Virus record (IMG/VR): IMGVR_UViG_3300028888_000001
DNA: 64,000 nt
Direction: 5' to 3' (one strand)
DNA from: a virus
Lineage: Duplodnaviria; Caudoviricetes
Under the pieces are notes generated by a model. That model saw only the letters and a program-made list of their open reading frames with translations, was not told the DNA's origin and searched no databases. Position 1 is the stretch's first letter, and every line of letters starts with the position of its first letter. Below are positions 18,775 to 39,509 of the stretch, in pieces. Both the position numbers and the translations under genes were made by a program.

Positions 18775-18816
18775 AAATTTAAAGCCATTAAGCGTTAACC
18801 TAATGGCTTTAAATTT
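18775..18816 (-). terminator. Rho-independent terminator
   Basis: aaatttaaagccatta / taatggctttaaattt 16-bp inverted repeat. Confidence 0.7.
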
Positions 18817-19151
18817 CACATGTCGATTACGGTAGGCGATTGAACTTTGGCTTTGTTAGCGTATTGCTCTAGCTCGCACATACACGAGCTGTTAGCTCCA
18901 GTCCACTCGAAATATATTCGTGCCGCATCGCTCTGATTTTTGGCAACCACCGCAAGCGGGTTTTTATAGATCATCTTCCCATATCTCGGTTCTTCTTCGC
19001 ACATCAAATATATGGCTCTCTTCTTAAGCATATACTTGTCCTGCTCATCCATAATACCATACAGAAAGTCGTTGCCGTAATCAACAATCTCGGAGTTAAT
19101 CATTTGCATCATTTGCTCATTAGGCTTATAAATAAACCTAATAGTTTTCAT
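18816..19151 (-). CDS. Hypothetical protein (111 aa)
   Basis: GAGGAGG RBS. Visibly more GC-rich than its neighbours. Confidence 0.7.
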   Translation of the reverse strand: MKTIRFIYKPNEQMMQMINSEIVDYGNDFLYGIMDEQDKYMLKKRAIYLMCEEEPRYGKMIYKNPLAVVAKNQSDAARIYFEWTGANSSCMCELEQYANKAKVQSPTVIDM

Positions 19152-19166
19152 AAACTTTTCCTCCTC

Positions 19167-20246
19167 TTAAAGATTGATAAGATCCAGAGGGTTATCAATA
19201 AAGTACTGATTATTTATATTCTTAACCGTCTCTGGATCTCTCAAATCTATTTTCCATGTGAAATCTTTATGTTCAACTTGATTCTGATATATCAGGCTTT
19301 GATATACTAGATCAAGTGTATAGAATCTATACCTAAACGAATGTCTATCTATAATCGTATGAAGATTAAGCAGACTATCGTATATCATATTATTATACGT
19401 CATGTACCTATTCAAAATCTGATTCTGATTTATAGCATCTGATATCATCTTGGCTGCTCTATTGAGATTCACTAGCTGATGCATATGTTTCTCCGGCAGT
19501 CCATTAAGAGCCCATAATAAAGAAATAAGCTGCGGGCTTATCCCAGTCAAATCAGTTTTGTTTTTCATGTAGCACATGCATAACGCATTCTGTCTAGTTA
19601 CAAGATATGACGTATCCATTACGGTGTTGGTATTCATATCAAACGACTTTTTAGGTCGTATTAAAACTGCATTTTCAGTAAATGGTGGTATTTGAAAAGC
19701 ATATTTGCTTTTTGTGATTATTATAGACAGCCTGTTTTTATTTGCACAAATACTGTCATAAGTAAACGAGCTAAAATCACATCGCTTATGAACGAAATAA
19801 AGTTCATTTATATAAGCGCATAATATCTTTACCAGCTCAAGCTGGCTTGAGATAAACTTATCAGTCTCTGTGTGTTTTACATTATTTATATCTGGTTGTT
19901 CATCGCCAAAATTGTTATAAAACTGTCGATGGTTAAGGCTAGAATCTTCTCCATATACTAGAAATATTCTAGCCCATGTTTTATGTCTGCTTCTATAATA
20001 TCCCCTAATATGCGCTGCAAGATTGATAATTGCAGCGCAAATAGAGAATCTCTTGTTACTGAAAACATCTGCTTCATATAGCTTCTTCAGCATATTTTTC
20101 AAATCTATGTAAACATCCACCTCAGTATTGTTAACTAGGTTAGATGGTAATAAGGAATTGATTTCTAAGAGTTTATCGTATCTGACATAATATGCTCCTA
20201 GAACTTGAGACACATCAAGTTGTTGTTGTTTTCCTTGAAGGCTCAT
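19167..20246 (-). CDS. Divergent PIN/FEN-fold 5'-3' exonuclease/RNase H-like protein (tentative)
   Basis: 359 aa. VDVYIDLKN and RIFLVYG strands, plus a C-terminal LLWALNGLP helix region, resemble the FEN/T4 RNase H fold. The catalytic acidic residues are not clearly complete. Confidence 0.35.
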   Translation of the reverse strand: MSLQGKQQQLDVSQVLGAYYVRYDKLLEINSLLPSNLVNNTEVDVYIDLKNMLKKLYEADVFSNKRFSICAAIINLAAHIRGYYRSRHKTWARIFLVYGEDSSLNHRQFYNNFGDEQPDINNVKHTETDKFISSQLELVKILCAYINELYFVHKRCDFSSFTYDSICANKNRLSIIITKSKYAFQIPPFTENAVLIRPKKSFDMNTNTVMDTSYLVTRQNALCMCYMKNKTDLTGISPQLISLLWALNGLPEKHMHQLVNLNRAAKMISDAINQNQILNRYMTYNNMIYDSLLNLHTIIDRHSFRYRFYTLDLVYQSLIYQNQVEHKDFTWKIDLRDPETVKNINNQYFIDNPLDLINL

Positions 20247-20400
20247 GGTAATATTCTCCTTTATCTTTGGTATTGTTATATCGCTGCGCTATTTCGGTCA
20301 TATATCTAGATTCTCCAACCGGATCTAGATGTAAGCCTAGTTTAGTATCTAAATAACTATATTGCTCCATAATCTTTTTCTTAATCATATCGTTGCGCAT
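20215..20400 (-). CDS. Small hypothetical protein (61 aa)
   Basis: GGGAGG RBS. Overlaps the start of the downstream gene. Confidence 0.5.
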   Translation of the reverse strand: MRNDMIKKKIMEQYSYLDTKLGLHLDPVGESRYMTEIAQRYNNTKDKGEYYHEPSRKTTTT

Positions 20401-20435
20401 GGCGTGCCTCCCATATTTCCCCCTAAGACGTATAA

Positions 20436-20831
20436 TTATTCGTCTAAACTTAATAGCTGTTTAGGATCGTAATAGTCTTCACTACCATCGTCCTCTTCAT
20501 AATCATCCTCTAGCATCTCTTGCTTGAAATTGTCTCTATGTCGCAAAGCGTTGACAATTCTTTTGGTATCTCCGTAGCCCTGTTCTACAAGAACTCCGGT
20601 TAATTCATCTGCGCCTTTATCAGAGATGGTACAGCCTTTCATCATATGCTCTTCTCCGTCGCTATAACTATACTTGCGAAGATCTAACTTATAAGGCTTA
20701 CCATCTCCCTCAACTGAATTCCAAGCTATTTTCCTCAGATTCAAGGAATTGCTACCAGATTCTTCGATGACAAAATCGAAATCAGGCATTGTCCTATAGT
20801 TAAAGGTTTTTCTTTCTTTTTGCTGTTGCAT
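20436..20831 (-). CDS. PC4/YdbC-like ssDNA-binding protein
   Basis: LNLRKIAWN...KLDLRKY...MMKGCTIS pattern with an acidic tail. Confidence 0.7.
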   Translation of the reverse strand: MQQQKERKTFNYRTMPDFDFVIEESGSNSLNLRKIAWNSVEGDGKPYKLDLRKYSYSDGEEHMMKGCTISDKGADELTGVLVEQGYGDTKRIVNALRHRDNFKQEMLEDDYEEDDGSEDYYDPKQLLSLDE

Positions 20832-20889
20832 TACATAAGTCCTCCTTAAACATATTTACTATATCGTACATAAATATGTAATAGTTTAC

Positions 20890-21537
20890 TTATGCTACCC
20901 GGGCAAATCTCCCGGGCTCAAATCTTTCAGGGATAGTGAAATTCTCATAGTATATCAGAAGCTGACCGTCCTCTACATTAAATGCTCTGACCTGCCTAAT
21001 TTTGTTTAAGCGTGTATCATAGACATCAATTCTGCCTTTATAATATCTCTTGGCTGCATAATCAACAAGATCTTGCGGGTTTTTAAAGTACTGTCTTCTG
21101 TCTTTCATAGAGATCACCTTATCTGAATATTTTGGATCTAATATTGAATAGTTTCTTTTATTTCTTTCTGCAGCTAGACTTTTTTCTGCTTCTGCAAGAA
21201 TATTGTCTATCTCTTCATCAGTCATATCATCGAAATCATCTTCTGCATCTTTTATAGATAATAATCCGTCTTCATCTTCATCAAAGTCATAAATGTCTTC
21301 TCCGATAAATAGATTACTAGCTAACTTTTTAAGAATTCCTTCTTTGTTTTTCTTTTTAGCTACTTTGGATTTCTCAATGTTTTTTCTTGGTTTCTTTTTA
21401 TTCTTTGTAGTAGCATCTTCGTGTTCCTGGATTTTCTTGTTCACCATATAACTACAATATGAAATTGTTGCTATGGTGAAAGAAACGTTGAATATCACCG
21501 CAATAAAAGCTACAATTATGAGATCTGCTGCTACCAT
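20890..21537 (-). CDS. Membrane-anchored hypothetical protein
   Basis: N-terminal TM helix, Lys-rich then Asp/Glu-rich segments. GGAGG RBS. Confidence 0.7.
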   Translation of the reverse strand: MVAADLIIVAFIAVIFNVSFTIATISYCSYMVNKKIQEHEDATTKNKKKPRKNIEKSKVAKKKNKEGILKKLASNLFIGEDIYDFDEDEDGLLSIKDAEDDFDDMTDEEIDNILAEAEKSLAAERNKRNYSILDPKYSDKVISMKDRRQYFKNPQDLVDYAAKRYYKGRIDVYDTRLNKIRQVRAFNVEDGQLLIYYENFTIPERFEPGRFARVA

Positions 21538-21568
21538 AATTAAACCTCCAATTAAAAATTAAAAACAA

Positions 21569-21594
21569 AGACGGAGGCTTGATAGCCTCCGTCT
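21569..21594 (-). terminator. Rho-independent terminator
   Basis: agacggaggct / agcctccgtct with a U-run on the minus strand. Confidence 0.75.
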
Positions 21595-21617
21595 CTTTTA
21601 ACAGCGTCTTATAATCT

Positions 21618-22466
21618 TTAATAATAGATAAACCCGTTCGCAAGCTGCATCTGCGGATTATCAGCAATCGCAAATTCAGCAACAGCTTTGGAATCAAACT
21701 GCTCGATATTCATCACAAATACATTGGAGTTAACCCACTTGACAAAGCGGGCCTCATACATGCATGCTGCTGTAAAATTCTCAGCATCATATCCGTCTGA
21801 AGTCTTGATTGTCTTGGTATACGTGATCATGTTCTCATCGAAGATCTTCTTCAAGATCAGACGAATATCGAAACAGCCATATACTCTGATCCAGAGTTCC
21901 CCAGCGCCAGGACGATACTGAGAATCACGTGCCGGAATCCATCTGCTCATGCAGCACTGCTTCCACTTGTTACTGTGCGGGTTATTGGACTTCTCGCCCT
22001 TCCCACCATACATGATTTCACTAAGCAGAACTTTAGTGTCATCATTAATTGTATAGATATTTCCAGACATCTTGTTCTGGAGCGCTTTGTTTTTCTGATA
22101 AATATTGGCTTCTTTGCCTACCTTGGTAAGATCATCGATATTTGTGATCTTTCCTTCTGGGCATTCAGCCATATTCTTTGTGAAATAGAAGTCCACGTTG
22201 AATGGGCTCTTCATTCCGGGCTGATACGCAATATACACGCCCCTAAGGTCGTGGAAAATCTTTTGGTAATACTCTCTGATGATAATGCTGAGCTGCTGGT
22301 TTGTCAGCCTCATGATATTACCAAACGATCTAAACGTATACGGGCTAAACTTTGCTGTTGCCTTGTTACTCAAGCGATCATAGATCACAAGGTCCTTGAG
22401 TGGGTTTCCATTACTGTCAACCCTAACGTCTACTACATTGTTAACTTTTGCTGCTACATCTGCCAT
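21618..22466 (-). CDS. Hypothetical protein (282 aa), probably highly expressed early
   Basis: AGGAGG RBS, TATATTATA at 22535-22543, its own terminator, and C-ending codon bias. Confidence 0.75.
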   Translation of the reverse strand: MADVAAKVNNVVDVRVDSNGNPLKDLVIYDRLSNKATAKFSPYTFRSFGNIMRLTNQQLSIIIREYYQKIFHDLRGVYIAYQPGMKSPFNVDFYFTKNMAECPEGKITNIDDLTKVGKEANIYQKNKALQNKMSGNIYTINDDTKVLLSEIMYGGKGEKSNNPHSNKWKQCCMSRWIPARDSQYRPGAGELWIRVYGCFDIRLILKKIFDENMITYTKTIKTSDGYDAENFTAACMYEARFVKWVNSNVFVMNIEQFDSKAVAEFAIADNPQMQLANGFIYY

Positions 22467-22591
22467 ATCGCAGTCCTCCTAAAAGTATATATTATATAAA
22501 GAGAAGCCATAAATGACTTCTCCTCATACACGTTTATAATATATAACCAAATTAGATTTTGGTTTATTATTTTGTACAGTTATTTTTATTT

Positions 22592-23089
22592 TTATACATT
22601 TTTATATTTAGACCAGAACTCAAGCGTATCATAGCTGTTATCTGTACCACTAGTTCTATTTTTGATTTTTTGTTCATCCCACTTTGCATCGTATTTTCTA
22701 GCAACTGCAGGATATAAGTGTGGTGATGGGAATGCTTCAGGAAACGCTTCAGCAAAATCAGTCGGTTTAATAATATATCCGACTGGAATCTTGCCATCGT
22801 TGTTGTTTAAAACAACATCCAGAATGTCAACCATAAACATCTGAATCTGTGCCGGTGTTTCTGCACACGATGCAAGCAAAACCAGCATATAATCTGGCAA
22901 TACTACATTTACGCCGCCCCATTCGAGTTTCTTTGTTAATACCTTAATAAGAAAATCATCATTAATTTCTTTGAAGTTATCATCTTTTGGATTGTATCCG
23001 GCTTTAGAAGATGCAATACTCCATCTGACAAATAATTTGGTTAAACTCTGCTCAAATTCAAGATCGTCTTCGCTCATCATTGTTTTCAT
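22592..23089 (-). CDS. Hypothetical protein (165 aa)
   Basis: AAGGAG RBS. Confidence 0.7.
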   Translation of the reverse strand: MKTMMSEDDLEFEQSLTKLFVRWSIASSKAGYNPKDDNFKEINDDFLIKVLTKKLEWGGVNVVLPDYMLVLLASCAETPAQIQMFMVDILDVVLNNNDGKIPVGYIIKPTDFAEAFPEAFPSPHLYPAVARKYDAKWDEQKIKNRTSGTDNSYDTLEFWSKYKNV

Positions 23090-23110
23090 TCTCCTTTAAT
23101 TATAGATATA

Positions 23111-24061
23111 TTAATTAGATACTTTCATTGCCCTAGCGATATCATCATCTACTGGGTAGTCTGCAGTTACGTTATATGTAATGAGATAGATCTTCTCATT
23201 CATATCTGAAACCATAATGTGTGAGTACGATACTATACTCCTAATATCGAGATCGTAATCATACTCAATAATCTTGATATTGTCGATATGCTTTCTTAAG
23301 ATATCTTCTAATCTAGCTTTCTGTTTGCTATTAAGAATGATATCATCATTAGCATCAAAAGATTCTTTACCTAGCACTATAGGAAAGTCTATTGGTACAA
23401 TACCAAATATGCTTCTATATGCATCCATAAAGCTATTCTCTTTAAGGAATTGCTCAAGAGACTCGCAATAGCCGTGTACGACATTAGAATTTTTCGACGA
23501 TAAGCCTTTAAAAACATCATCGAAAATTTTTGTCATATTGCCAACTAGCTTCATGATGTCATTTAATGTGTCATCACAATATAGATAAATGAGCATATCC
23601 GCTTCAACGTGATCAAACTCATATAGATCAGTCAAGCTCATATCAGGATCTATTAATGTATCTTTGGTTAAGCACTCACCCACAAAGACAACATTAAAAA
23701 ATCTATCTCCTACAAACATATTTTTAGCCTGAGATAGAGTATCTTGTCTCATAATTATAGCAAGTGAATCATCTAACTTCTCTGGATTTAAGCTATCTGT
23801 CCTGAATACTCTCACATACATATCATCATCGCCATTTTCATATTTAGTCCACATGATATGCAGTAAAGCATCGGGCTGAATCTCTACCATTGACTCGTTA
23901 ATTTCTTGCATTGTTTTTGTAAATATTTCTGTAGTGCCACATTTACAAAACGAAGCTGAATTTTCATTCTTAGCTCTCATCAATCTATATAGCGTTTTAT
24001 CATTATCGCTAAACTGCTCATAGATTTGATACTTACAACCGATTTTAAATTTACTTTTCAT
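23111..24061 (-). CDS. Hypothetical protein (316 aa)
   Basis: GGAGG RBS. Confidence 0.75.
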   Translation of the reverse strand: MKSKFKIGCKYQIYEQFSDNDKTLYRLMRAKNENSASFCKCGTTEIFTKTMQEINESMVEIQPDALLHIMWTKYENGDDDMYVRVFRTDSLNPEKLDDSLAIIMRQDTLSQAKNMFVGDRFFNVVFVGECLTKDTLIDPDMSLTDLYEFDHVEADMLIYLYCDDTLNDIMKLVGNMTKIFDDVFKGLSSKNSNVVHGYCESLEQFLKENSFMDAYRSIFGIVPIDFPIVLGKESFDANDDIILNSKQKARLEDILRKHIDNIKIIEYDYDLDIRSIVSYSHIMVSDMNEKIYLITYNVTADYPVDDDIARAMKVSN

Positions 24062-24140
24062 GATTATCCTCCATAAATTTTATTTATTATAATATTAAAT
24101 TAGATTTAATATTTAATAAACTTTTAAGATGACTAAAAAT

Positions 24141-24166
24141 CCACACTGGGGCTGATCCCAGTGTGG
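24141..24166 (-). terminator. Rho-independent terminator
   Basis: ccacactggg / cccagtgtgg with a U-run on the minus strand. Confidence 0.75.
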
Positions 24167-24172
24167 TGATTT

Positions 24173-25291
24173 TCACTCTATTAATATAGCTGCTTTAAAA
24201 TAAATATCATTAGTATCTATATCAGCTTCAGACAGATACGGATTATTAGCCATGTGTCTACAATAGTTATTTATGATACTACTATCTAGCTGCTGTTCTT
24301 GAGATTTAATCTTATAAATTATAGCTCTATTATGCAACTGATAGGTTTCATATATTGCAGAAACAACCTGAAACACTTTATAGTTAGCTGGGAATGTGAA
24401 AATGCCATCTTCATAAAGTGAAGTGAAATAGCCGTTCTCATTCTCTAGCATTAGAATATGGTTTCTAAGATTTCCAGTAACAAATATAGCGTAAATATTT
24501 GAATTGGCGTCCTCATCTAGTATTTTTGAATTGAGCTTAGTACCGTTTTCACTAACGCAAATATATAACGGAAAATATTCTGAATCTATATGAGCTTCAT
24601 TTAACGCATGTGGCGTATTTTTATATTGCTCAAATGTCTTAAAGTCATCATATTTATTTATTATGTCGCAGAAAGAATTCATCTCTTGTGTATAAATTCT
24701 TTCTATTCTATTTTTCGCTTTTTCTATATTGGACTCAGTCATTTCAACCTCTGGATTCCAACCTAAAGAAATAAGCTGAGTCTTAATATCATTTATCTCA
24801 TCTGGGTCTTCAGTGTCTCTTAATTTCAATTCAAGTTCTTTAATTTCTGTTCCATAATTAAAAGAATCTGCTTTGCATGAATCTGAGTGGTCGATACCAG
24901 TAGTATAATGCTCATTATAAATTAGAGCTGCTGGCATTTCTGTTATGGTAAAGTACGGGCAGTAGATATATTCCCATTTAAACGTGTTTTCTAATTTACG
25001 TCTTTCAGATAATTCTCTATTGATTTCATTTATAGCATATTTAGTATCTCTATATTCAGCAGCCGATTCTATCTCTGAAGAATAGTACCGCTCTAATACA
25101 GTTCTATTAAATACTAAATTAGATTCTGATAGTTGTGTAATTCGTTCCTTTGCTTGATAAATCTTGCCTGGGAATCTATTGAACCCTTCAAGCATAGTTG
25201 ATTCAGCAAATTGTTGTATTTTTTCTTCTAATTTTTTATCCATCAATTGCCTCCAATCTTTAAAATTATGAGAGGTATTGCTACCTCTCAT
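24173..25291 (-). CDS. Probable internal head protein; true start is probably the Met of MDKKLEE
   Basis: A GGAGG RBS precedes the internal ATG. Several x-x-E-[S/A/G] motifs. Confidence 0.45.
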   Translation of the reverse strand: MRGSNTSHNFKDWRQLMDKKLEEKIQQFAESTMLEGFNRFPGKIYQAKERITQLSESNLVFNRTVLERYYSSEIESAAEYRDTKYAINEINRELSERRKLENTFKWEYIYCPYFTITEMPAALIYNEHYTTGIDHSDSCKADSFNYGTEIKELELKLRDTEDPDEINDIKTQLISLGWNPEVEMTESNIEKAKNRIERIYTQEMNSFCDIINKYDDFKTFEQYKNTPHALNEAHIDSEYFPLYICVSENGTKLNSKILDEDANSNIYAIFVTGNLRNHILMLENENGYFTSLYEDGIFTFPANYKVFQVVSAIYETYQLHNRAIIYKIKSQEQQLDSSIINNYCRHMANNPYLSEADIDTNDIYFKAAILIE

Positions 25292-25310: not shown

Positions 25311-28300
25311 TTAAATTATTGCTCTTATCATGTCTTCAGTTAGCATACTAGAAGAAGAAACAGATATAGATCTCTTACCGGTTAGATTATTATAGAAATA
25401 ATTACCGTCAAAGTCTTCTTTAATAGAAATAATTTCTTCTCCATTTAGTCTATATTTATTAACAAACTTAGGCTTTTTAGTTATAGCACTTTCAATAAAA
25501 GCAGCTCTAAAAGTTTTATATCCAAGACAATCTATAATGCTGTCTCTTAACGTTACCATCTCAGACATCACTTTCTGCTCAATCAAATTAAATTCAATCT
25601 TCCTGAAGTTTGGATCAAACTCAATCTGGTCTTCTGTAAGCATAAGCTTATCTGTTAATGCTGTGTATATATTAAATACTTTTGAGCCTTCTTTATAGTA
25701 TCTGTTGAGTCTATCTATATAAGCATAGTTACCTATAAACTCATAAGCCTCTATGATATTAAGATCTTTGGTTGGCTCTGTTTTAAGAGCACCATCGTCA
25801 TCTACAACCAAGCATCTATCTAAATTCATATCATTAGTATATACATAATGATCGCTAAGTAATTTTTCAGGATGTCTTGGATCACCAACTTTAATTAAAA
25901 ATGGTTTATGAATTCCTATAACTGGATTTATTGAAGCAAGAGAATTTTCTTTTAATTTTATAGAAGAATATAAAATATTATTCTCAAGCTTTAATGGATA
26001 TTGAACTGCCCATTCATATGCTCCAGATTCAGTAACATTAATTACACCAACCGGAACAAGCTTAGGCGGTGTCTTAGGTTCTGTAAATGCTCTAGCGTTA
26101 GTAAACACATACTCTGTGATTTCTAACGTATCATCATTAAACATAGTTCTTTCAATCATGCATCTAATACAATCATCTATGGATTTATAATATAGCTCTT
26201 CGTCCACTTCATTCGGATATTTCTTTTCAGAGATATACCACCATGTGATAGCACTTATAGGAACAGATTTAAATCCCTCATCATTTACAGCAATGAGAAT
26301 ATTATCATCAGCATTTTCAGGTATGCTTATTTGATTACCAAATATAATATTTGGAGTCTCTTCTTTATCGAACCTATAAGCATTTAAACCTACAGAAATT
26401 GCAGCTTCTACATTTTCTTGTTTATCATCAAAGAATATTGCTCTTGATGGATCAATCTCATATTTATTTAAAAATATAGTATACATTTCTCTATTTGGTT
26501 TTTGAATTTCTCCAAGCTCAAATGAGAAAACTCCTCCATCAAATTTATCAAGTAAAGGTCTAAAGAATGGCTCCTCAACCTCAAATGAGAACTTAGTCCA
26601 ATTTGATAGATAATATAGCTTATAACCTTTAGATCTAAGCATGTCAAGCATATCATATACGTAAGGATATACATACATAGCTTCTCTAAATGTGGCTAAG
26701 ATACTGTCTACATATGGTTTAATATGGTCAGGAGCAACATCATTTAATTTTACTCTAATTTGTTGTAAATTAAGCTGTTGCGTTTCTGAGCTATTGGCGC
26801 TATAGAAGCATTCTTTATCTATAAGGTCTTTAATCTCTTCACATAATTCATTTGGTATATCTGGATTATCGATTAAGGCTTTTAAACTATGCGCATCCAC
26901 AAGCACATTGCCCATATCGAATATTATAGTATCAACAGAATCTGGAATGATACTAATAATAGCGCCCTCAGATAAATACTTATAACACTGAGTTGTTTCT
27001 GGTATTTTAATATCATATTTCTTGGCTGCCGCTTTGATTCTCTTAGCTAAGCGTTTCTTCTTATCTTCTTGAGCATGACCAAAAAGATGTATAGCTGATT
27101 TAACATGCTTAGCTGAATCTAATGGAAATTTTCTATCTTCCGGAATTCCAAAAGCTGAATCTGGCAACTCTGAACGCTTAGTTTCTAATATGGCAGATTC
27201 TTCTTTAAGCATTAAATCAACAAAGTATTTTCTAAATTTCTTTAATTTAGATTCTCCCTTAAACCACATTCCTGGATCAAGAAATTCTGGTTGCTTATCT
27301 CTCTTGCAAGCTCTATAAAGAGAAACGACCATAGAAGTTCCCTTAATATATACAGCATAATTTTTAAGATCTTCAGGTTTAAGGAATAAATAAATCCAAA
27401 TTCCTTCAAGAACAAATTTAGTGTTTTTATGCTTCTTAGCATACTCTATAGTATAATTAACAAAATCATTTATTAACGATTCTTCATAATTAATAGTCTT
27501 AAATTCTTTTGAATCATTTAATTCGTCTGCAGTGAGATAGTATTTCTTATATTTTGGTTCTGTAAAGAAATTAGACACAAGTGGGCCAAATTCATTTTTA
27601 AAATCTTCTATAGTATGATATTCTTTATTCCAGATGATATCATCAAGTTCAACCACTACAGCTTTATTATTATATTTTCTACCCATAGTAGATTTACCAG
27701 AACCAGATTGTCCTGTAATAAAGCATATATTAGTCAAACCTTTATCGAATTTTTCTTTATTATAATAAATATCATCTTTATTAAAGATATAACCTTCAGA
27801 TACATTATTAGAAGCTTCCAAATATAACGCTGCTTCATCAGATTGTGTTTTTTCTTGAATTATATCATTTACTTGCTCAAGCTTAATAGTTTTATTATCC
27901 TCGACATTTTTAAGAATATAATTCGATGAGCCCATACCGAGCCATTTCATATACTCGATCTGATGTGTGCCACCAAGCTTAGAAATTTGCTCCATTAAAT
28001 CTTTATTTCCAGGAGCATTTCTAATAAAATCTAATGACGCTTGTTCTATGGCAAGAATATCCGTAGATACTAAAACGCCTATATTGGGAATAGTACTTTT
28101 AGGAGCATCTTTATCACAGTCGCACATTGTAGATAGATTTTGTAATACGTTTACATAAACTATTCTATTGTCAAACATCGATTCTATAGCAGAAGCAGAT
28201 TCTACTAAACGCTCTAAGAATAATGGGCCTCGAATCCAATCTTCACCATGAATTTGAATTTTTCCTTTAGCGCCTGTAGGAATACCCATTCCGATATTCT

Positions 28301-30623
28301 TTACAGCGCCACCATATCCAGCAACGCCGTGACCTTTAAAATGAGTATAGACGATCATACTATCATAATTCTTTATATGAGCACCCACATTAATTTCTGA
28401 TAAATGTCTTCCTGGGGTGACGCATGATTCGTAACCAGGTTTTCCATTAGCTAGAGCTCTAAGTTCTTGATCTATTAGATATTTTTTAGGAACGCTAATA
28501 TCTATACCACCATCAGCATCCAGTATATCGATATATCCAAAATCAAAGCCATGTTCTCTAGCAGTATTTATATGATCTTGAGTTGTTCCTCTAGTAGAGC
28601 CCTCATAAGCAGTATTAGAATCAACTAAAGCACCGTTAGTGTATTTAACTAAGTCTTTAAGAAGATTAGGATTTAAGAAATTCTTATTGCCAGATTCGCC
28701 AAAATGTAATTTTATGGCAATTCTGTCTCCAAGATAATCTTGGAATAATGAAACCATATATGCTATAGTTTTAGAATCAATACTTGAAGAATAATACACT
28801 ATAGGCTTTTCTTTAGGATTATATGCTTCTTTAAGAAGTTTAATCCTATCTAGTATAGCAGATTCTCCATAACCAGTGTTAAAATTCCACTCGTTATCTT
28901 TAACAAGCTCCTCTTTATGATCTATCAGATATTTTAACGTTACTGGCTTATTGTTATAAAACATCGGATATACGTTTATATTTCTTTTTCCATCTGTGGT
29001 GTTATATTTTCTGATATTATGTATATGCCCATGAATATTCCACCAATCTTCTGGATACGTATCCATATTTACCGGTCTATGAGTAAACAGATAATTCCTC
29101 CAAGTAAAGTCTTCTAATACATAATCAAATCCACACTTTGTAAAGTAATCTTGTCCTAGCATCTTATCATGATTACCAAGAACAAAAATCTTATGACCAG
29201 CAATAGAAGCCATAAACTCTTGAGACTTTTTCTGATCTTCTTGGTTAGCATATCTAAAACTCAAATCACCAAGATATATAAACACATCTTCAGGCTTTAT
29301 ATTTTGCTTGCACCACTTAAGAATTTCTTGCGTGTTTACATAATTAGCCTCGTGCTTATAATGATTTTTGAAGAAATGCCAATCTGACGTTAGGAATATA
29401 CGATCTAACGGAGTGTTATCTAATAATGAAGTGATATCCGGTTTATATGATTCCATATCCGGCAATTCAAATTCTATTTCAGAAGATGACTTTTTAGTAT
29501 TCTTCAATGGATCATAAATATTGCCAGCATAAAGCTCGTCGTCTTCTATATCTAAACCAACATCAAAGGCTTCTAAATTAATAGATGCCTTATTTTTTTC
29601 TCCGTGCAACTTTAAGTCATCTCCTTTACTGTAAAATGCTCGCTCTAATGATTCATAATCTTTATTCATTAAATCATATACGATATTTTGAGTAAATAGT
29701 ACACTCCTCATCCCAATAAGGTTAGCCATTTCTATGCTAGGCTCTTGGTCATCTATAAGAATAGTATTATTTATACTGAGATTGTATCTATTCAATAGTC
29801 TATTTAAAAATTTATAATTTGGTTTGCTCATATTTTCTTTGAAAGAGAATAATCCTCCATCAAAATATTTATCTAAGAATTTAAATAAACCATTCATTCT
29901 ACAAATTTCATATGAGCTTCGAGTCCAGTTTGATAAATAATATAGTTTATAACCTTTAGACTTAAGGTTTTCCAGTAATGGTATAGTATAATCGAATAAT
30001 GTTTTGCTTCCAGAAGCAAAATCAAATAAGCTCTTTATAAACTCATAACTAAAACCATAAGAGTCCATAGCTTTAATATAGTTTCTAAGTGCTATATCAT
30101 ATGGTATACTATCATTATTATATACTATCTTATAATATATACTAAGATATTCTCTAAGCTGTTCTTCTGTAATTTTTAATTTTCTTAATAGAGACTCTGG
30201 ATTAGCTCTATTCTTGATTAAAACTCCACCTAGATCGAATATGATATTATAAATTCTATTATCATACTCATCCATAAAAGATTCATCGATTACATTTCTA
30301 TATTCCCATTCAAAGCCAGTTGTTCCATTATCAACAAATTTTATTTTCCCAAATTTCTTGACTCTTATAGTATCTATAAATTTAACTTTACCTTCGGTCA
30401 TACTATTTGGAAAGATTTTATTTTTGTCTATATCATAAAGAATATAAACAAATAATTCATCACCAACATAAATATTTCTGTATTCTTTTATAGCAAGCTC
30501 GACTGAAGTAAATAAATAATTATTACAATCTGTTGGCGATAATGTTAGATTTACACTATCTTTTGAAGATAGATAATAATATCTAAAAGTATCTACCCTA
30601 GATTCATGTGTGTTGGATAACAT
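25311..30623 (-). CDS. Multi-enzyme polyvalent protein: HAD phosphatase, calcineurin-like phosphoesterase, DUF362, P-loop kinase-like, DUF6582-like, second HAD phosphatase
   Basis: IIFDLGGVL..YYLSN..KP..LIDD; TSDWHF/LGDLS/LGNHD/THRP/IHGHIH; AIKLHFGE/THFKGH..AGYGGAVKNIGMG/CDC; ITGQSGSGKST; KRSELPDSAFGIP..RKFPL...HVKSAI; IIFDMGNVL..YYLSN..KP..FFDD. Confidence 0.85.
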   Translation of the reverse strand: MLSNTHESRVDTFRYYYLSSKDSVNLTLSPTDCNNYLFTSVELAIKEYRNIYVGDELFVYILYDIDKNKIFPNSMTEGKVKFIDTIRVKKFGKIKFVDNGTTGFEWEYRNVIDESFMDEYDNRIYNIIFDLGGVLIKNRANPESLLRKLKITEEQLREYLSIYYKIVYNNDSIPYDIALRNYIKAMDSYGFSYEFIKSLFDFASGSKTLFDYTIPLLENLKSKGYKLYYLSNWTRSSYEICRMNGLFKFLDKYFDGGLFSFKENMSKPNYKFLNRLLNRYNLSINNTILIDDQEPSIEMANLIGMRSVLFTQNIVYDLMNKDYESLERAFYSKGDDLKLHGEKNKASINLEAFDVGLDIEDDELYAGNIYDPLKNTKKSSSEIEFELPDMESYKPDITSLLDNTPLDRIFLTSDWHFFKNHYKHEANYVNTQEILKWCKQNIKPEDVFIYLGDLSFRYANQEDQKKSQEFMASIAGHKIFVLGNHDKMLGQDYFTKCGFDYVLEDFTWRNYLFTHRPVNMDTYPEDWWNIHGHIHNIRKYNTTDGKRNINVYPMFYNNKPVTLKYLIDHKEELVKDNEWNFNTGYGESAILDRIKLLKEAYNPKEKPIVYYSSSIDSKTIAYMVSLFQDYLGDRIAIKLHFGESGNKNFLNPNLLKDLVKYTNGALVDSNTAYEGSTRGTTQDHINTAREHGFDFGYIDILDADGGIDISVPKKYLIDQELRALANGKPGYESCVTPGRHLSEINVGAHIKNYDSMIVYTHFKGHGVAGYGGAVKNIGMGIPTGAKGKIQIHGEDWIRGPLFLERLVESASAIESMFDNRIVYVNVLQNLSTMCDCDKDAPKSTIPNIGVLVSTDILAIEQASLDFIRNAPGNKDLMEQISKLGGTHQIEYMKWLGMGSSNYILKNVEDNKTIKLEQVNDIIQEKTQSDEAALYLEASNNVSEGYIFNKDDIYYNKEKFDKGLTNICFITGQSGSGKSTMGRKYNNKAVVVELDDIIWNKEYHTIEDFKNEFGPLVSNFFTEPKYKKYYLTADELNDSKEFKTINYEESLINDFVNYTIEYAKKHKNTKFVLEGIWIYLFLKPEDLKNYAVYIKGTSMVVSLYRACKRDKQPEFLDPGMWFKGESKLKKFRKYFVDLMLKEESAILETKRSELPDSAFGIPEDRKFPLDSAKHVKSAIHLFGHAQEDKKKRLAKRIKAAAKKYDIKIPETTQCYKYLSEGAIISIIPDSVDTIIFDMGNVLVDAHSLKALIDNPDIPNELCEEIKDLIDKECFYSANSSETQQLNLQQIRVKLNDVAPDHIKPYVDSILATFREAMYVYPYVYDMLDMLRSKGYKLYYLSNWTKFSFEVEEPFFRPLLDKFDGGVFSFELGEIQKPNREMYTIFLNKYEIDPSRAIFFDDKQENVEAAISVGLNAYRFDKEETPNIIFGNQISIPENADDNILIAVNDEGFKSVPISAITWWYISEKKYPNEVDEELYYKSIDDCIRCMIERTMFNDDTLEITEYVFTNARAFTEPKTPPKLVPVGVINVTESGAYEWAVQYPLKLENNILYSSIKLKENSLASINPVIGIHKPFLIKVGDPRHPEKLLSDHYVYTNDMNLDRCLVVDDDGALKTEPTKDLNIIEAYEFIGNYAYIDRLNRYYKEGSKVFNIYTALTDKLMLTEDQIEFDPNFRKIEFNLIEQKVMSEMVTLRDSIIDCLGYKTFRAAFIESAITKKPKFVNKYRLNGEEIISIKEDFDGNYFYNNLTGKRSISVSSSSMLTEDMIRAII

Positions 30624-30656: not shown

Positions 30657-30670
30657 TTTATTTTAATGTC
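30657..30670 (-). promoter_or_regulatory. Putative late promoter GACA-N6-TAAA
   Basis: Minus strand gaca ttaaaa taaa upstream of the 1770-aa gene. Confidence 0.5.
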
Positions 30671-30719
30671 GAGCAGACAATAATTTAGAGGAGGCTATTA
30701 AAGCCTCCCCATTTTATTT

Positions 30720-31815: not shown

Positions 31816-32463
31816 TTAATTACTAATTGCGTAATAGTCTTTATTTTTATAAACTCTAGATTTTCTGCCTAAGTATGGCGTTCTAGTATAAGAGCTCTTA
31901 GTGAACTCATACCAAACCAAATTAGTTTGATATTTCTTAGCTAGATCTAAGCTATGCTGAGTACCAGTGCCATGACTTGCAGAATCTTTGAAACAAATAA
32001 CCATTCTGTTTGGTTTTTGAGAGATAAATTTATGCATTTGCTCATTGCGTTTTAAGCCTGCTGTAGAGCCATATATAGTCCACGCTGCTGGAAAACCTTT
32101 AAGATTGTAGCCTCTATCAGCAGCATAGTTTTTAGCTATAGTATCTACACCAGCTTCTTCACCCTCAACAATGACAATCTTCTTATATTGCTCTTTAATC
32201 TCTTTAAGCTCTTCATCTAGTAAGCTATAGATTATATCTATGCGCTCTTGATCTAGAATTGTTTTACTTCCAGCAACGAGCAGATAGAAATATTCATTGT
32301 CTTCAAGAGCTTCTAATTTCTTAGCCTCAATCTCTTCCATAGAAAGTATAGCTTTCTTAGGAGCTAATTCTGGAGGGCCGTTATATAATTCAGGATCGTT
32401 AAGTACTTCTTCAGGCATTTCTTGCTCTGGCTCTTGTACCGATGTAATATTTTCTTCGTTCAT
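31816..32463 (-). CDS. SLOG-family (DUF2493/YspA-like) protein
   Basis: LLVAGSK...IVEGEEAGVDTIA...FPAAW..YG..AG..RNEQM...SHGTGT.HSL. Confidence 0.8.
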   Translation of the reverse strand: MNEENITSVQEPEQEMPEEVLNDPELYNGPPELAPKKAILSMEEIEAKKLEALEDNEYFYLLVAGSKTILDQERIDIIYSLLDEELKEIKEQYKKIVIVEGEEAGVDTIAKNYAADRGYNLKGFPAAWTIYGSTAGLKRNEQMHKFISQKPNRMVICFKDSASHGTGTQHSLDLAKKYQTNLVWYEFTKSSYTRTPYLGRKSRVYKNKDYYAISN

Positions 32464-38564: not shown

Positions 38565-39509
38565 TTATACAACCTCCTCTGCAATCTCAAGAATACTCTT
38601 ACAGAATTTCGATAAGCTTCTAGCACAGATCTTCTCTATAGTAATCTGGTTATCAATATATCCACCGATATAAGTATTAGTCATAACCATAGCAAATGCT
38701 GGGAAGTATTCCAATGCGAATATGGTTCCGGTACCAAATGACTTAATCCAAGTGCTTACTACAGCATCAATTTTAATATCCTTGAGATTAAACATGCGGC
38801 CAAGAGCTTTAATAAACGTATCGATATCCTGAAAATCTTCTTGCTTAAGCATAATATCTACAATCTTAGATTCAGAATCTTCTATATCAACTATACGCAT
38901 TGCATAGTTTTTAATAGTTTTAAATTGAGACTCAGTATAGCTGTCTTTGCAAAGAAGATTTATTTGATAATACAATGCACAAGCATAATCAATTCTCTTC
39001 TTAATTTGCTGAACTGATGTTATCTTATAAATCCTATCAATGGCATAAGAAAGCATAGATACAAAACAACTACCGCCGTCTAGTATGATAGACGAATCCA
39101 TCGTTAGTTTAGCTTCCCTAAGTTTAAATACAAAGTTCGTTATACCAGCAATGGTATAACTAATCAACCAATTTAATTCTTGACATTGATAAGCTCCCTT
39201 ATCGTATTTTATATAATCAGTGGCATCTATAAAAACTTTATATTTTTTATCAGTTTTTACATCTTGTGCTACGAATACTCTAAACGCTTTAGGAAGCGAT
39301 CTATCTCCAATACCAATAACCACATTATCTGATGTGATTACTTTAGCGAGTTTATCAGAAATTTTACGTCTTTTAACATCAAAAAGTATATCATCAAATT
39401 CAGATGACTTAGTATCTATACGATTAGCAGCCATGATAAACTTATACATGTCACGCCCATAATCTATAGACTTTTTATAAAGAAAGCTATCAGCATAGGT
39501 TTTTGCCAT
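38565..39509 (-). CDS. Probable virion structural protein (314 aa)
   Basis: AGGAGG RBS, late promoter at 39538-39551, co-transcribed with the 1836-aa gene. Confidence 0.55.
   Translation of the reverse strand: MAKTYADSFLYKKSIDYGRDMYKFIMAANRIDTKSSEFDDILFDVKRRKISDKLAKVITSDNVVIGIGDRSLPKAFRVFVAQDVKTDKKYKVFIDATDYIKYDKGAYQCQELNWLISYTIAGITNFVFKLREAKLTMDSSIILDGGSCFVSMLSYAIDRIYKITSVQQIKKRIDYACALYYQINLLCKDSYTESQFKTIKNYAMRIVDIEDSESKIVDIMLKQEDFQDIDTFIKALGRMFNLKDIKIDAVVSTWIKSFGTGTIFALEYFPAFAMVMTNTYIGGYIDNQITIEKICARSLSKFCKSILEIAEEVV

Follow-up and report, generated by a model that had tools for sequence, protein, structure and literature searches.

What a jumbo phage does with a protein of 1770 amino acids, in which one enzyme domain follows another in a single open reading frame, is the question raised by a gene on the minus strand, at 25311..30623, of a 64,000-nucleotide stretch (the window) of the IMG/VR virus record IMGVR_UViG_3300028888_000001. 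The record as a whole (the genome) comprises 313,331 bp with direct terminal repeats at its ends, is from an uncultured gut phage and, to judge from its sequence, represents a distantly AR9-like jumbo phage. An initial annotation of the window took the protein, here P0001, to be a polyprotein that is packaged in the virion, cut by protease and injected. Since the glutamate motif of head-maturation proteases stands at its joints, the chain probably goes into the capsid, is cut into separate pieces and reaches the cell together with the DNA. That the polyprotein is both packaged and cut is given moderate confidence here; cleavage, packaging, ejection and the targets of the enzymes are what we infer from comparison of sequences.

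In the scheme proposed, the chain would be made late, alongside the head proteins, and taken into the prohead, and a protease of the S77 type would cut it after Glu at joints of the form hydrophobic-x-Glu/small residue (the slash here and below marking the predicted cut). Its products would be a short leader, several spacers of 7-20 residues and about eight autonomous pieces, namely module A, a first HAD phosphatase (HAD1), a metallophosphoesterase (MPE), DUF362, a P-loop kinase, DUF6582, a second HAD phosphatase joined to module H1 (HAD2-H1), and module H2. Retained in the head, the pieces would be injected along with the DNA.

Glutamate at the joints

A search of 5.8 billion proteins yielded 164 homologues of about 1000-2800 amino acids, on contigs of up to 325 kb. 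The homologues are mosaics, with the same modules in varying number and order together with GNAT and other modules not in P0001, and the domain combination of the latter, unfamiliar to the initial annotation, reads on this comparison as one state of a large mosaic family and not as unique. Cassette-like swapping at the motifs had been suggested as a check, and is found among the relatives: in 120 homologues module swapping coincides exactly with the motifs. The proposal of a chain of autonomous modules has in this way gained independent sequence evidence.

Joints were read by anchoring family members on one module and then reading the flanks, with MAFFT alignments and with distinct sequences being counted. 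Family similarity, so read, ends at a Glu regardless of the next module, and at every swapped joint the last conserved residue is a Glu with a hydrophobic residue before it, in 80-100% of distinct sequences against a background of 7%. About 90% of distinct sequences have Glu in the boundary column where A, MPE and DUF362 end and where the kinase starts (n=22 to 83, with 47 for the end of the MPE, 29 for that of DUF362 and 83 for the position before the kinase). Glu stands ahead of the HADs in 80-90% of distinct sequences, is conserved ahead of the MPE whatever module is upstream, and is at most 4 residues upstream of all 40 of the 40 distinct internal DUF6582 starts, mostly as [ILVF]xE/T. The end of module A has the consensus [LIV]x[ND]E/[STNAG]; the MPE is preceded by IxLE/ or VNE/ and ends in GYGE/[SATQ], or in LSE/T where DUF6582 is directly next; DUF362 starts about 10 residues behind hydrophobic-x-E/[AQ] and ends in [IL]KLE/[SNTQ]; the kinase starts after [IVF]xE/[GNAS] and the HADs after YLNE/S. 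The GNAT modules of relatives follow the same Glu rule. Six nearly invariant Glu are present in an alignment of residues 936-1770, three of them being the joints E1147, E1219 and E1559. The joint between HAD2 and H1 (IPE/N, E1436) provides a negative control: it is never swapped, relatives have IPK, IPD, IPS or IPP, and Glu is found in ~20%. Use of the ends of high-scoring segment pairs (HSPs) from all-against-all BLAST as a breakpoint detector gave weak Glu enrichment, 9-20% versus 7%, because HSP ends are fuzzy, and the module-anchored alignments were used instead.

Within P0001 itself, the x-x-E-small motifs that the initial annotation had placed at domain boundaries are all present, as VIDE/S (E114), YGE/S (E587), LKE/A (E599), YLE/A (E936), VSE/G (E943), LKEE/S (E1142), ILE/T (E1147), YLSE/G (E1219), LKE/N (E1559) and FIE/S (E1711), though the last proves to lie inside module H2, where it is partly conserved. 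The present analysis adds THE/S (E7), INLE/A (E351) and IKLE/Q (E916). Tandem sites surround spacers of 5-20 residues in YGE/S...LKE/A, YLE/A...VSE/G and LKEE/S..ILE/T. AlphaFold models of the two halves of the chain have confident domains and a mean predicted local distance difference test score (pLDDT) of 74.5 and 81.7, with values below 50 at residues 1-9, 111-142, 293-391, 583-603, 926-941, 1144-1164, 1430-1437 and 1556-1564; predicted sites are inside these segments, the named exceptions being E1219 and, as a borderline case, E943. A comparison of motif frequency in linkers and elsewhere, also suggested at the outset, reveals a modest excess of the loose motif in linkers, with 7/24 matches in the 12% of residues that have low pLDDT (binomial p = 0.02). 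With enrichment within P0001 being modest, the case rests on the comparative family data.

Those data also bear on a different possibility, that the chain stays uncleaved in the cytoplasm as a multi-enzyme that co-localises phosphatases, kinase and DUF362 late, the Glu at joints then reflecting a linker or fold-capping preference or shared linker ancestry. It is considered unlikely. Left unexplained by it are the ending or starting of unrelated folds (A, MPE, DUF362, GNAT, kinase) at hydrophobic-x-Glu with any neighbour, the lack of Glu at the sole unswapped joint, the tandem sites with their short spacers, and the start at a site of stand-alone H2 genes. The stand-alone H2 proteins, which are metagenomic and from other phages (P0129, P0150, P0155, P0167), are of 198-213 amino acids and start MA..NP[VI]IGI, 1-4 residues from the predicted LKE/N cut. 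The points that speak for an uncleaved chain are taken up below with the others that tell against packaging.

Head protease, capsid protein and promoter

Cutting after Glu is common to the head proteases of T4, phiKZ, 201phi2-1 and SPN3US (PMC5694885). The suggested link to such a protease has been borne out to the extent that the genome encodes a T4 gp21-type prohead protease, Peptidase_S77, at genome positions 94786-95232 (PF03420, 43.8 bits with a cut-off of 27; phrog_3014 and phrog_207, 'head maturation protease'). Its gene adjoins those of the capsid protein (phrog_20655) and of a hyper-acidic scaffold-like protein. In ten capsid proteins of the clade the invariant Glu in the variable N-terminal 100 residues are those of ILRE/S (E37) and AVRE/N (E100) alone, the latter ten residues ahead of the conserved core, and by sequence these two candidate sites match the polyprotein joints in type.

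Two features of the head proteins may be recorded in passing. The major capsid protein (genome 88052-90091, minus strand) ends with a (GGGTT)n tail of ~45 residues, which is unusual for a capsid protein. Its 392-residue neighbour is extremely acidic, with a long region rich in Asp, Glu, Thr and Ala followed by a helical C-terminal 110 residues, and is scaffold-like.

Evidence from the joints would serve equally well for a polyprotein that is cut at its Glu but not ejected, its fragments being lost or degraded in the manner of scaffold, or for cutting in the cytoplasm by another Glu-specific protease, with the enzymes acting in the producing cell, for example in late nucleotide salvage or modification of progeny. 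Such an outcome is thought quite improbable. Proteases of the T4 prohead type are active inside proheads only (as known from T4 assembly; PMC5694885), a candidate for a second protease was not seen, with no search having been aimed at one, and folded enzymes of 23-39 kDa would be unlikely to exit a closed shell as small scaffold peptides do.

A late-type promoter ahead of the polyprotein gene, which had been deemed odd for metabolic enzymes, has stood up as a recurrent motif. ACATT-N4-TAA, as gACATTAAAATAA, is present at 30658..30669 (minus strand), 46 nt ahead of the polyprotein ATG; a terminator-like hairpin precedes it, and the ribosome-binding site, AAGGAG, follows it, 7 nt ahead of the ATG. 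The hairpin (ggggaggc...gcctcctc, 30688..30710, minus strand), read from the sequence behind the upstream gene, appears to set the polyprotein transcription unit apart from that gene. The genome has 39 copies of ACATT-N4-TAA, on both strands and often with G/A just before, of which 32 are at most 100 nt upstream of the start of a gene on the same strand, versus 1.8 expected. The motif precedes the prohead protease gene and, in the window, a phrog_21032 virion-protein gene, and a scan of ten further genes that bear it identified four 'virion structural protein' families, two RNA-polymerase subunits and one endonuclease. Being recurrent and tied to virion genes, it marks the polyprotein promoter as a real promoter motif of this phage. 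The late promoter of AR9 is AACA-N6-TA/G (PMC5312081), and it is from likeness to this that late timing for ACATT-N4-TAA is inferred. Promoter searches by simple k-mers and for TATAAGTA-type elements gave no useful result, with ACATT-N4-TAA emerging later.

Two occurrences of the motif merit mention. One is upstream of a gene at 38565-39509 of the window (minus strand). The other is that of a 199-residue open reading frame (genome 139663-140262, minus strand) which begins ...NTEWEYRKDEYIVND, resembling the conserved end of module A (GFEWEYRNVIDE/S).

What weighs against packaging

Several observations weigh against the chain being packaged and cut, and some of them are those on which the uncleaved cytoplasmic chain would draw. 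The motif is loose, with 24 matches in P0001 and a hydrophobic residue at P3 for 49 of its 130 Glu. A search for an N-terminal targeting leader common to late genes was negative, with leaders of the hydrophobic-x-E kind being present in 9/47 late-promoter genes and in 41/238 others. The polyprotein gene is outside the head cluster, ~110 kb away from the head genes, and downstream of it is a conserved neighbour (window 19167-20246) with homologues in AR9 (g220), PBS1 (gene 111) and Staphylococcus jumbo phages; AR9 g220 is without virion annotation and is beside genes for dCMP deaminase and ribonucleotide reductase. These points are shared by the uncleaved chain. Further, modules A, DUF6582 and H are absent from the cultured phages searched, and a control search found DUF6582 in cellular genomes also. 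DUF6582 as a repeated cargo tag was considered and rejected, there being one copy per genome, always in the polyprotein gene. No fold could be assigned to A, H1 or H2 (the models were multidomain halves, for which the lists from fold searches were filled by HAD, MPE and LarA matches), and consequently there is no structural link to capsid interiors.

The modules in order

Profile searches recovered the whole series of domains that had been proposed (HAD, phosphoesterase, DUF362, P-loop, DUF6582 and second HAD), each where it had been placed. All modules are on the minus strand, with coordinates given here for the window. The chain opens with a 7-residue leader, MLSNTHE/S (30603..30623), whose Glu, E7, is kept in relatives: those that bear module A have xxxE/[ST]R[IV]D[ST][FY]RYYHLS at the start of the module irrespective of what precedes. 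Module A itself (residues 8-114; 30282..30602) is beta-rich, has a model pLDDT of ~70-83 and ends ...EWEYRNVIDE/S, with the end Glu in ~90% of 22 distinct sequences. A profile comparison with H1 gave an hhalign probability of 78% (E 1.8e-5) and plain BLASTP no significant match; the two modules are probably homologous.

HAD1 (residues 115-351; 29571..30281) ends INLE/A at E351, has Pfam and NCBIfam matches (Pfam HAD at residues 124-312) and displays the same four HAD motifs as HAD2. The MPE (residues 352-587; 28863..29570), ending GYGE/S, matches phrog_547 over residues 406-582 (E 5e-23), and its motifs SDWH, GD (LGD), GNHD, THRP and GHIH (HGHIH) show conservation of 90% or more among 50 sequences of the family. 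By the motif set DxH, GD, GNH(D/E), H and GHxH it is predicted to be an intact calcineurin-like binuclear metallophosphoesterase; its Foldseek matches are 1xm7 (Aquifex AQ665; E 1.8e-8) and the Pseudomonas putida nuclease MPE 6nvo. Then comes a 12-residue spacer between two sites, SAILDRIKLLKE/A (28827..28862), in a region with pLDDT below 50 (583-603).

The DUF362 module (residues 600-916; 27876..28826), which ends IKLE/Q, matches PF04015 over residues 635-865 with 117 bits (cut-off 24; E 1.5e-33). Foldseek comparison of its model is with lactate and malate racemases (LarA; E ~3e-4 over 260-312 columns), and the module is accordingly modelled as having a LarA-like fold. Homology to the proteins P0002 and P0003 (81% identical) stops at its end. 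Two short spacers follow, residues 917-936 and 937-943 (27795..27875), which end YLE/A and VSE/G, with pLDDT below 50 at 926-941.

In the P-loop kinase module (residues 944-1147; 27183..27794), with Walker A GQSGSGKST and the end LKEE/SAILE/T, matches to AAA and uridine-kinase profiles are weak. The P-loop, at residues 954-1005, is weak by sequence, the kinase fold being found in a confident model whose best match among viral models in BFVD is a 219-residue P-loop protein (E 5.7e-11). DUF6582 (residues 1148-1219; 26967..27182) begins TKRSELPDSAFGIPEDRKFPL..., ends YLSE/G and matches PF20223 over residues 1152-1209 with 37.8 bits (cut-off 27.3; E 2.5e-9). HAD2 (residues 1220-1436; 26316..26966) is of YihX type with DMGNV as motif I and a HAD match over residues 1230-1414 (E 8e-25); it was aligned to Escherichia coli YihX (8pno) over FDMGNV, LSN, KP and FFDD, and the motifs I (DxGxV), II (S/T), III (K) and IV (DD) of HAD subfamily IA (YihX-like) are present, with TIGR01509 at 69.5 bits (cut-off 29.4).

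The end of the chain is formed by H1 (residues 1437-1559; 25947..26315), which is A-like and ends LKE/N with a nearly invariant E1559, and by H2 (residues 1560-1770; 25314..25946), a conserved C-terminal domain. The H domain is rare, being in 87 clusters among 1.84 billion representatives, and is C-terminal in all 87. For A, H1 and H2 a fold search of the Atlas returned no match, and in sequence and profile searches of the PDB it was HAD and MPE alone that matched. A search for related loci with the H module alone as query likewise gave no match.

A locus that takes in modules

Short forms of the gene, of 525-1058 amino acids, are present in five genomes with a capsid protein 59-73% identical to that of the P0001 phage; these forms consist of MPE, DUF6582 and H, with HAD2 in some. 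Each of the six genomes has one copy of the gene (no paralogues were found in that of P0001), and in 5/5 relatives it heads the same downstream gene block. Single copy, synteny and the shared core together point to a single conserved locus that became longer as it acquired modules. A, HAD1, DUF362, kinase and often HAD2 are missing from the gene in the close relatives; the accessory modules, dispensable there, look like optional additions and not like essential metabolism. DUF6582 is the most widespread module of the family (117/121 sequences) and, in 6/6 genomes, is present as one copy, always inside the polyprotein gene.

A possible though doubtful extension of packaging and cutting is that, among the gut and rumen jumbo phages of this clade, head-protease sites act as universal couplers. 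Any enzyme placed in frame between two sites of the core MPE-DUF6582-H gene would be packaged, freed and injected, the cargo train could range from about 500 to 2800 residues, and DUF6582, which is nearly universal and partly disordered, would be the handle for encapsidation. Searches of cultured phages gave single-domain matches alone and no near DNA match, and no publication was found on such an arrangement or on DUF6582.

Comparison with known systems

The closest parallel for delivery is with the internal proteins of T4, IPI-III and Alt, which are processed by gp21 (MEROPS S77). Alt has a 6-residue leader that is cut at ITE-6, and loses a C-terminal piece at LTE-619; propeptides of T4 and SPN3US have multiple sites that flank short fragments (PMC5694885). 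Shared with the present case are a phage with an S77-type protease and a late protein (for P0001 the timing being by analogy), a short N-terminal leader that ends in Glu and Glu sites with a hydrophobic P3 (predicted in P0001), and, for Alt, an enzyme thought to travel with the DNA. However, T4 cargo is single-domain and trimmed at its ends only, whereas P0001 would be cut at about eleven sites into about eight modules, and a capsid-targeting sequence shared among cargo proteins was not found in the P0001 phage. What would differ is one chain dissected into about eight unrelated enzymes and not merely trimmed at its ends.

phiKZ, 201phi2-1 and SPN3US are, like the present phage, jumbo phages with multisubunit RNA polymerases, and have proteases (gp175/gp245, MEROPS S80) that cut at S/A/G-x-E or A-x-E. 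In giant phages cuts after Glu are found in many internal head proteins, and multi-site propeptides give small fragments (PMC5694885, PMC10052503). The substrates there lose N-terminal propeptides, and an enzyme chain with such sites between its members is not described among them; P3 is Ala, Ser or Gly in those sites but hydrophobic, as in T4, in P0001.

With the polyvalent proteins (Iyer, Burroughs, Anand, de Souza, Aravind 2017; PMC5512222) the similarities are great length, many unrelated enzymatic domains, proposed delivery with the DNA, and architectures that differ from one relative to the next, GNAT being one of the modules that vary. P0001 has what defines them, 2-15 unrelated effector domains in one phage polypeptide that vary among relatives. 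Their processing has been proposed to be via embedded zincin-like MPTase domains (PMC5512222), whereas the joints of P0001 match the head protease. Pfam, PHROG and NCBIfam scans of P0001 revealed none of MuF, zincin-like MPTase, ART or DdrB-ParB, and a text search of PMC5512222 for HAD or calcineurin-type domains found none.

Viral polyproteins, such as those cut by picornavirus 3C or potyvirus NIa, likewise come from a single open reading frame, in which a short conserved cleavage motif separates the functional units. The 3C proteases prefer Gln/Glu at P1. The differences are that the protease for P0001 is encoded elsewhere in the genome, that its cutting is predicted to be in the prohead and not in the cytoplasm, and that the virus is a double-stranded DNA phage.

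If the chain is cut by the head protease, large phages would have a device for adding pre-made enzymes to what they inject, by in-frame fusion between two sites of a cargo gene. This would account for the high frequency of very long mosaic proteins in uncultured jumbo phages, and would provide a sequence rule by which injected proteins could be predicted from metagenomes. It would also point to activities of the first minutes of infection (YihX-type phosphatases, metallophosphoesterase, kinase, LarA-fold DUF362, DUF6582 and H), and would offer a model from nature for how foreign proteins could be loaded into capsids.

Possible targets of the enzymes

As judged from their families, the enzymes suggest phospho-ester chemistry early in infection, with nucleotides, phosphorylated metabolites or nucleic-acid ends as substrates, the basis being two YihX-type HADs, a binuclear MPE, a P-loop protein that resembles nucleoside/nucleotide or polynucleotide kinases, and the LarA-fold DUF362. 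Nucleotide pools or signalling defences as the targets are a matter of speculation.

A narrower proposal, which competes for function only and is compatible with packaging, is that kinase, HAD and MPE form a Pnkp-like end-healing toolkit that acts on cleaved tRNA or RNA ends, against host anticodon nucleases. Foldseek against viral models (BFVD) does return many polynucleotide kinase/phosphatase proteins, as kinase and HAD occur in series, and the MPE resembles the P. putida nuclease MPE. But the chain has no ligase, motif I of the HADs is DxGNV, of the YihX or small-molecule type, and not the DxDxT of T4 Pnkp, and in the core form that close relatives carry, the gene lacks both kinase and HADs. 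End healing is given a low probability.

A reading in terms of uracil-DNA in the style of PBS1/AR9, in which the HAD would be a dTMPase and the kinase would act on dUMP, was also considered and is unsupported because the genome has a ThyA-family gene. That gene is at genome 261514-262296 (minus strand), and two dCMP-deaminase-like genes are at 307728-308114 (plus strand) and 287216-287572 (minus strand); ThyX is absent from the genome.

Neighbouring genes

Downstream, a block of six genes with function unassigned (window 18816-25291, minus strand) abuts the polyprotein gene and is syntenic in the 5/5 relatives examined; the homologue of AR9 g220 is one of the six. In the other direction, 1.2 kb upstream of the polyprotein, is a gene for a 215-residue protein of the YAcAr / SLOG family (window 31816-32463, minus strand; PF10686, E 2e-9; phrog_289, 'GTP-binding domain'). 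SLOG domains are connected with nucleotide-derived signalling.

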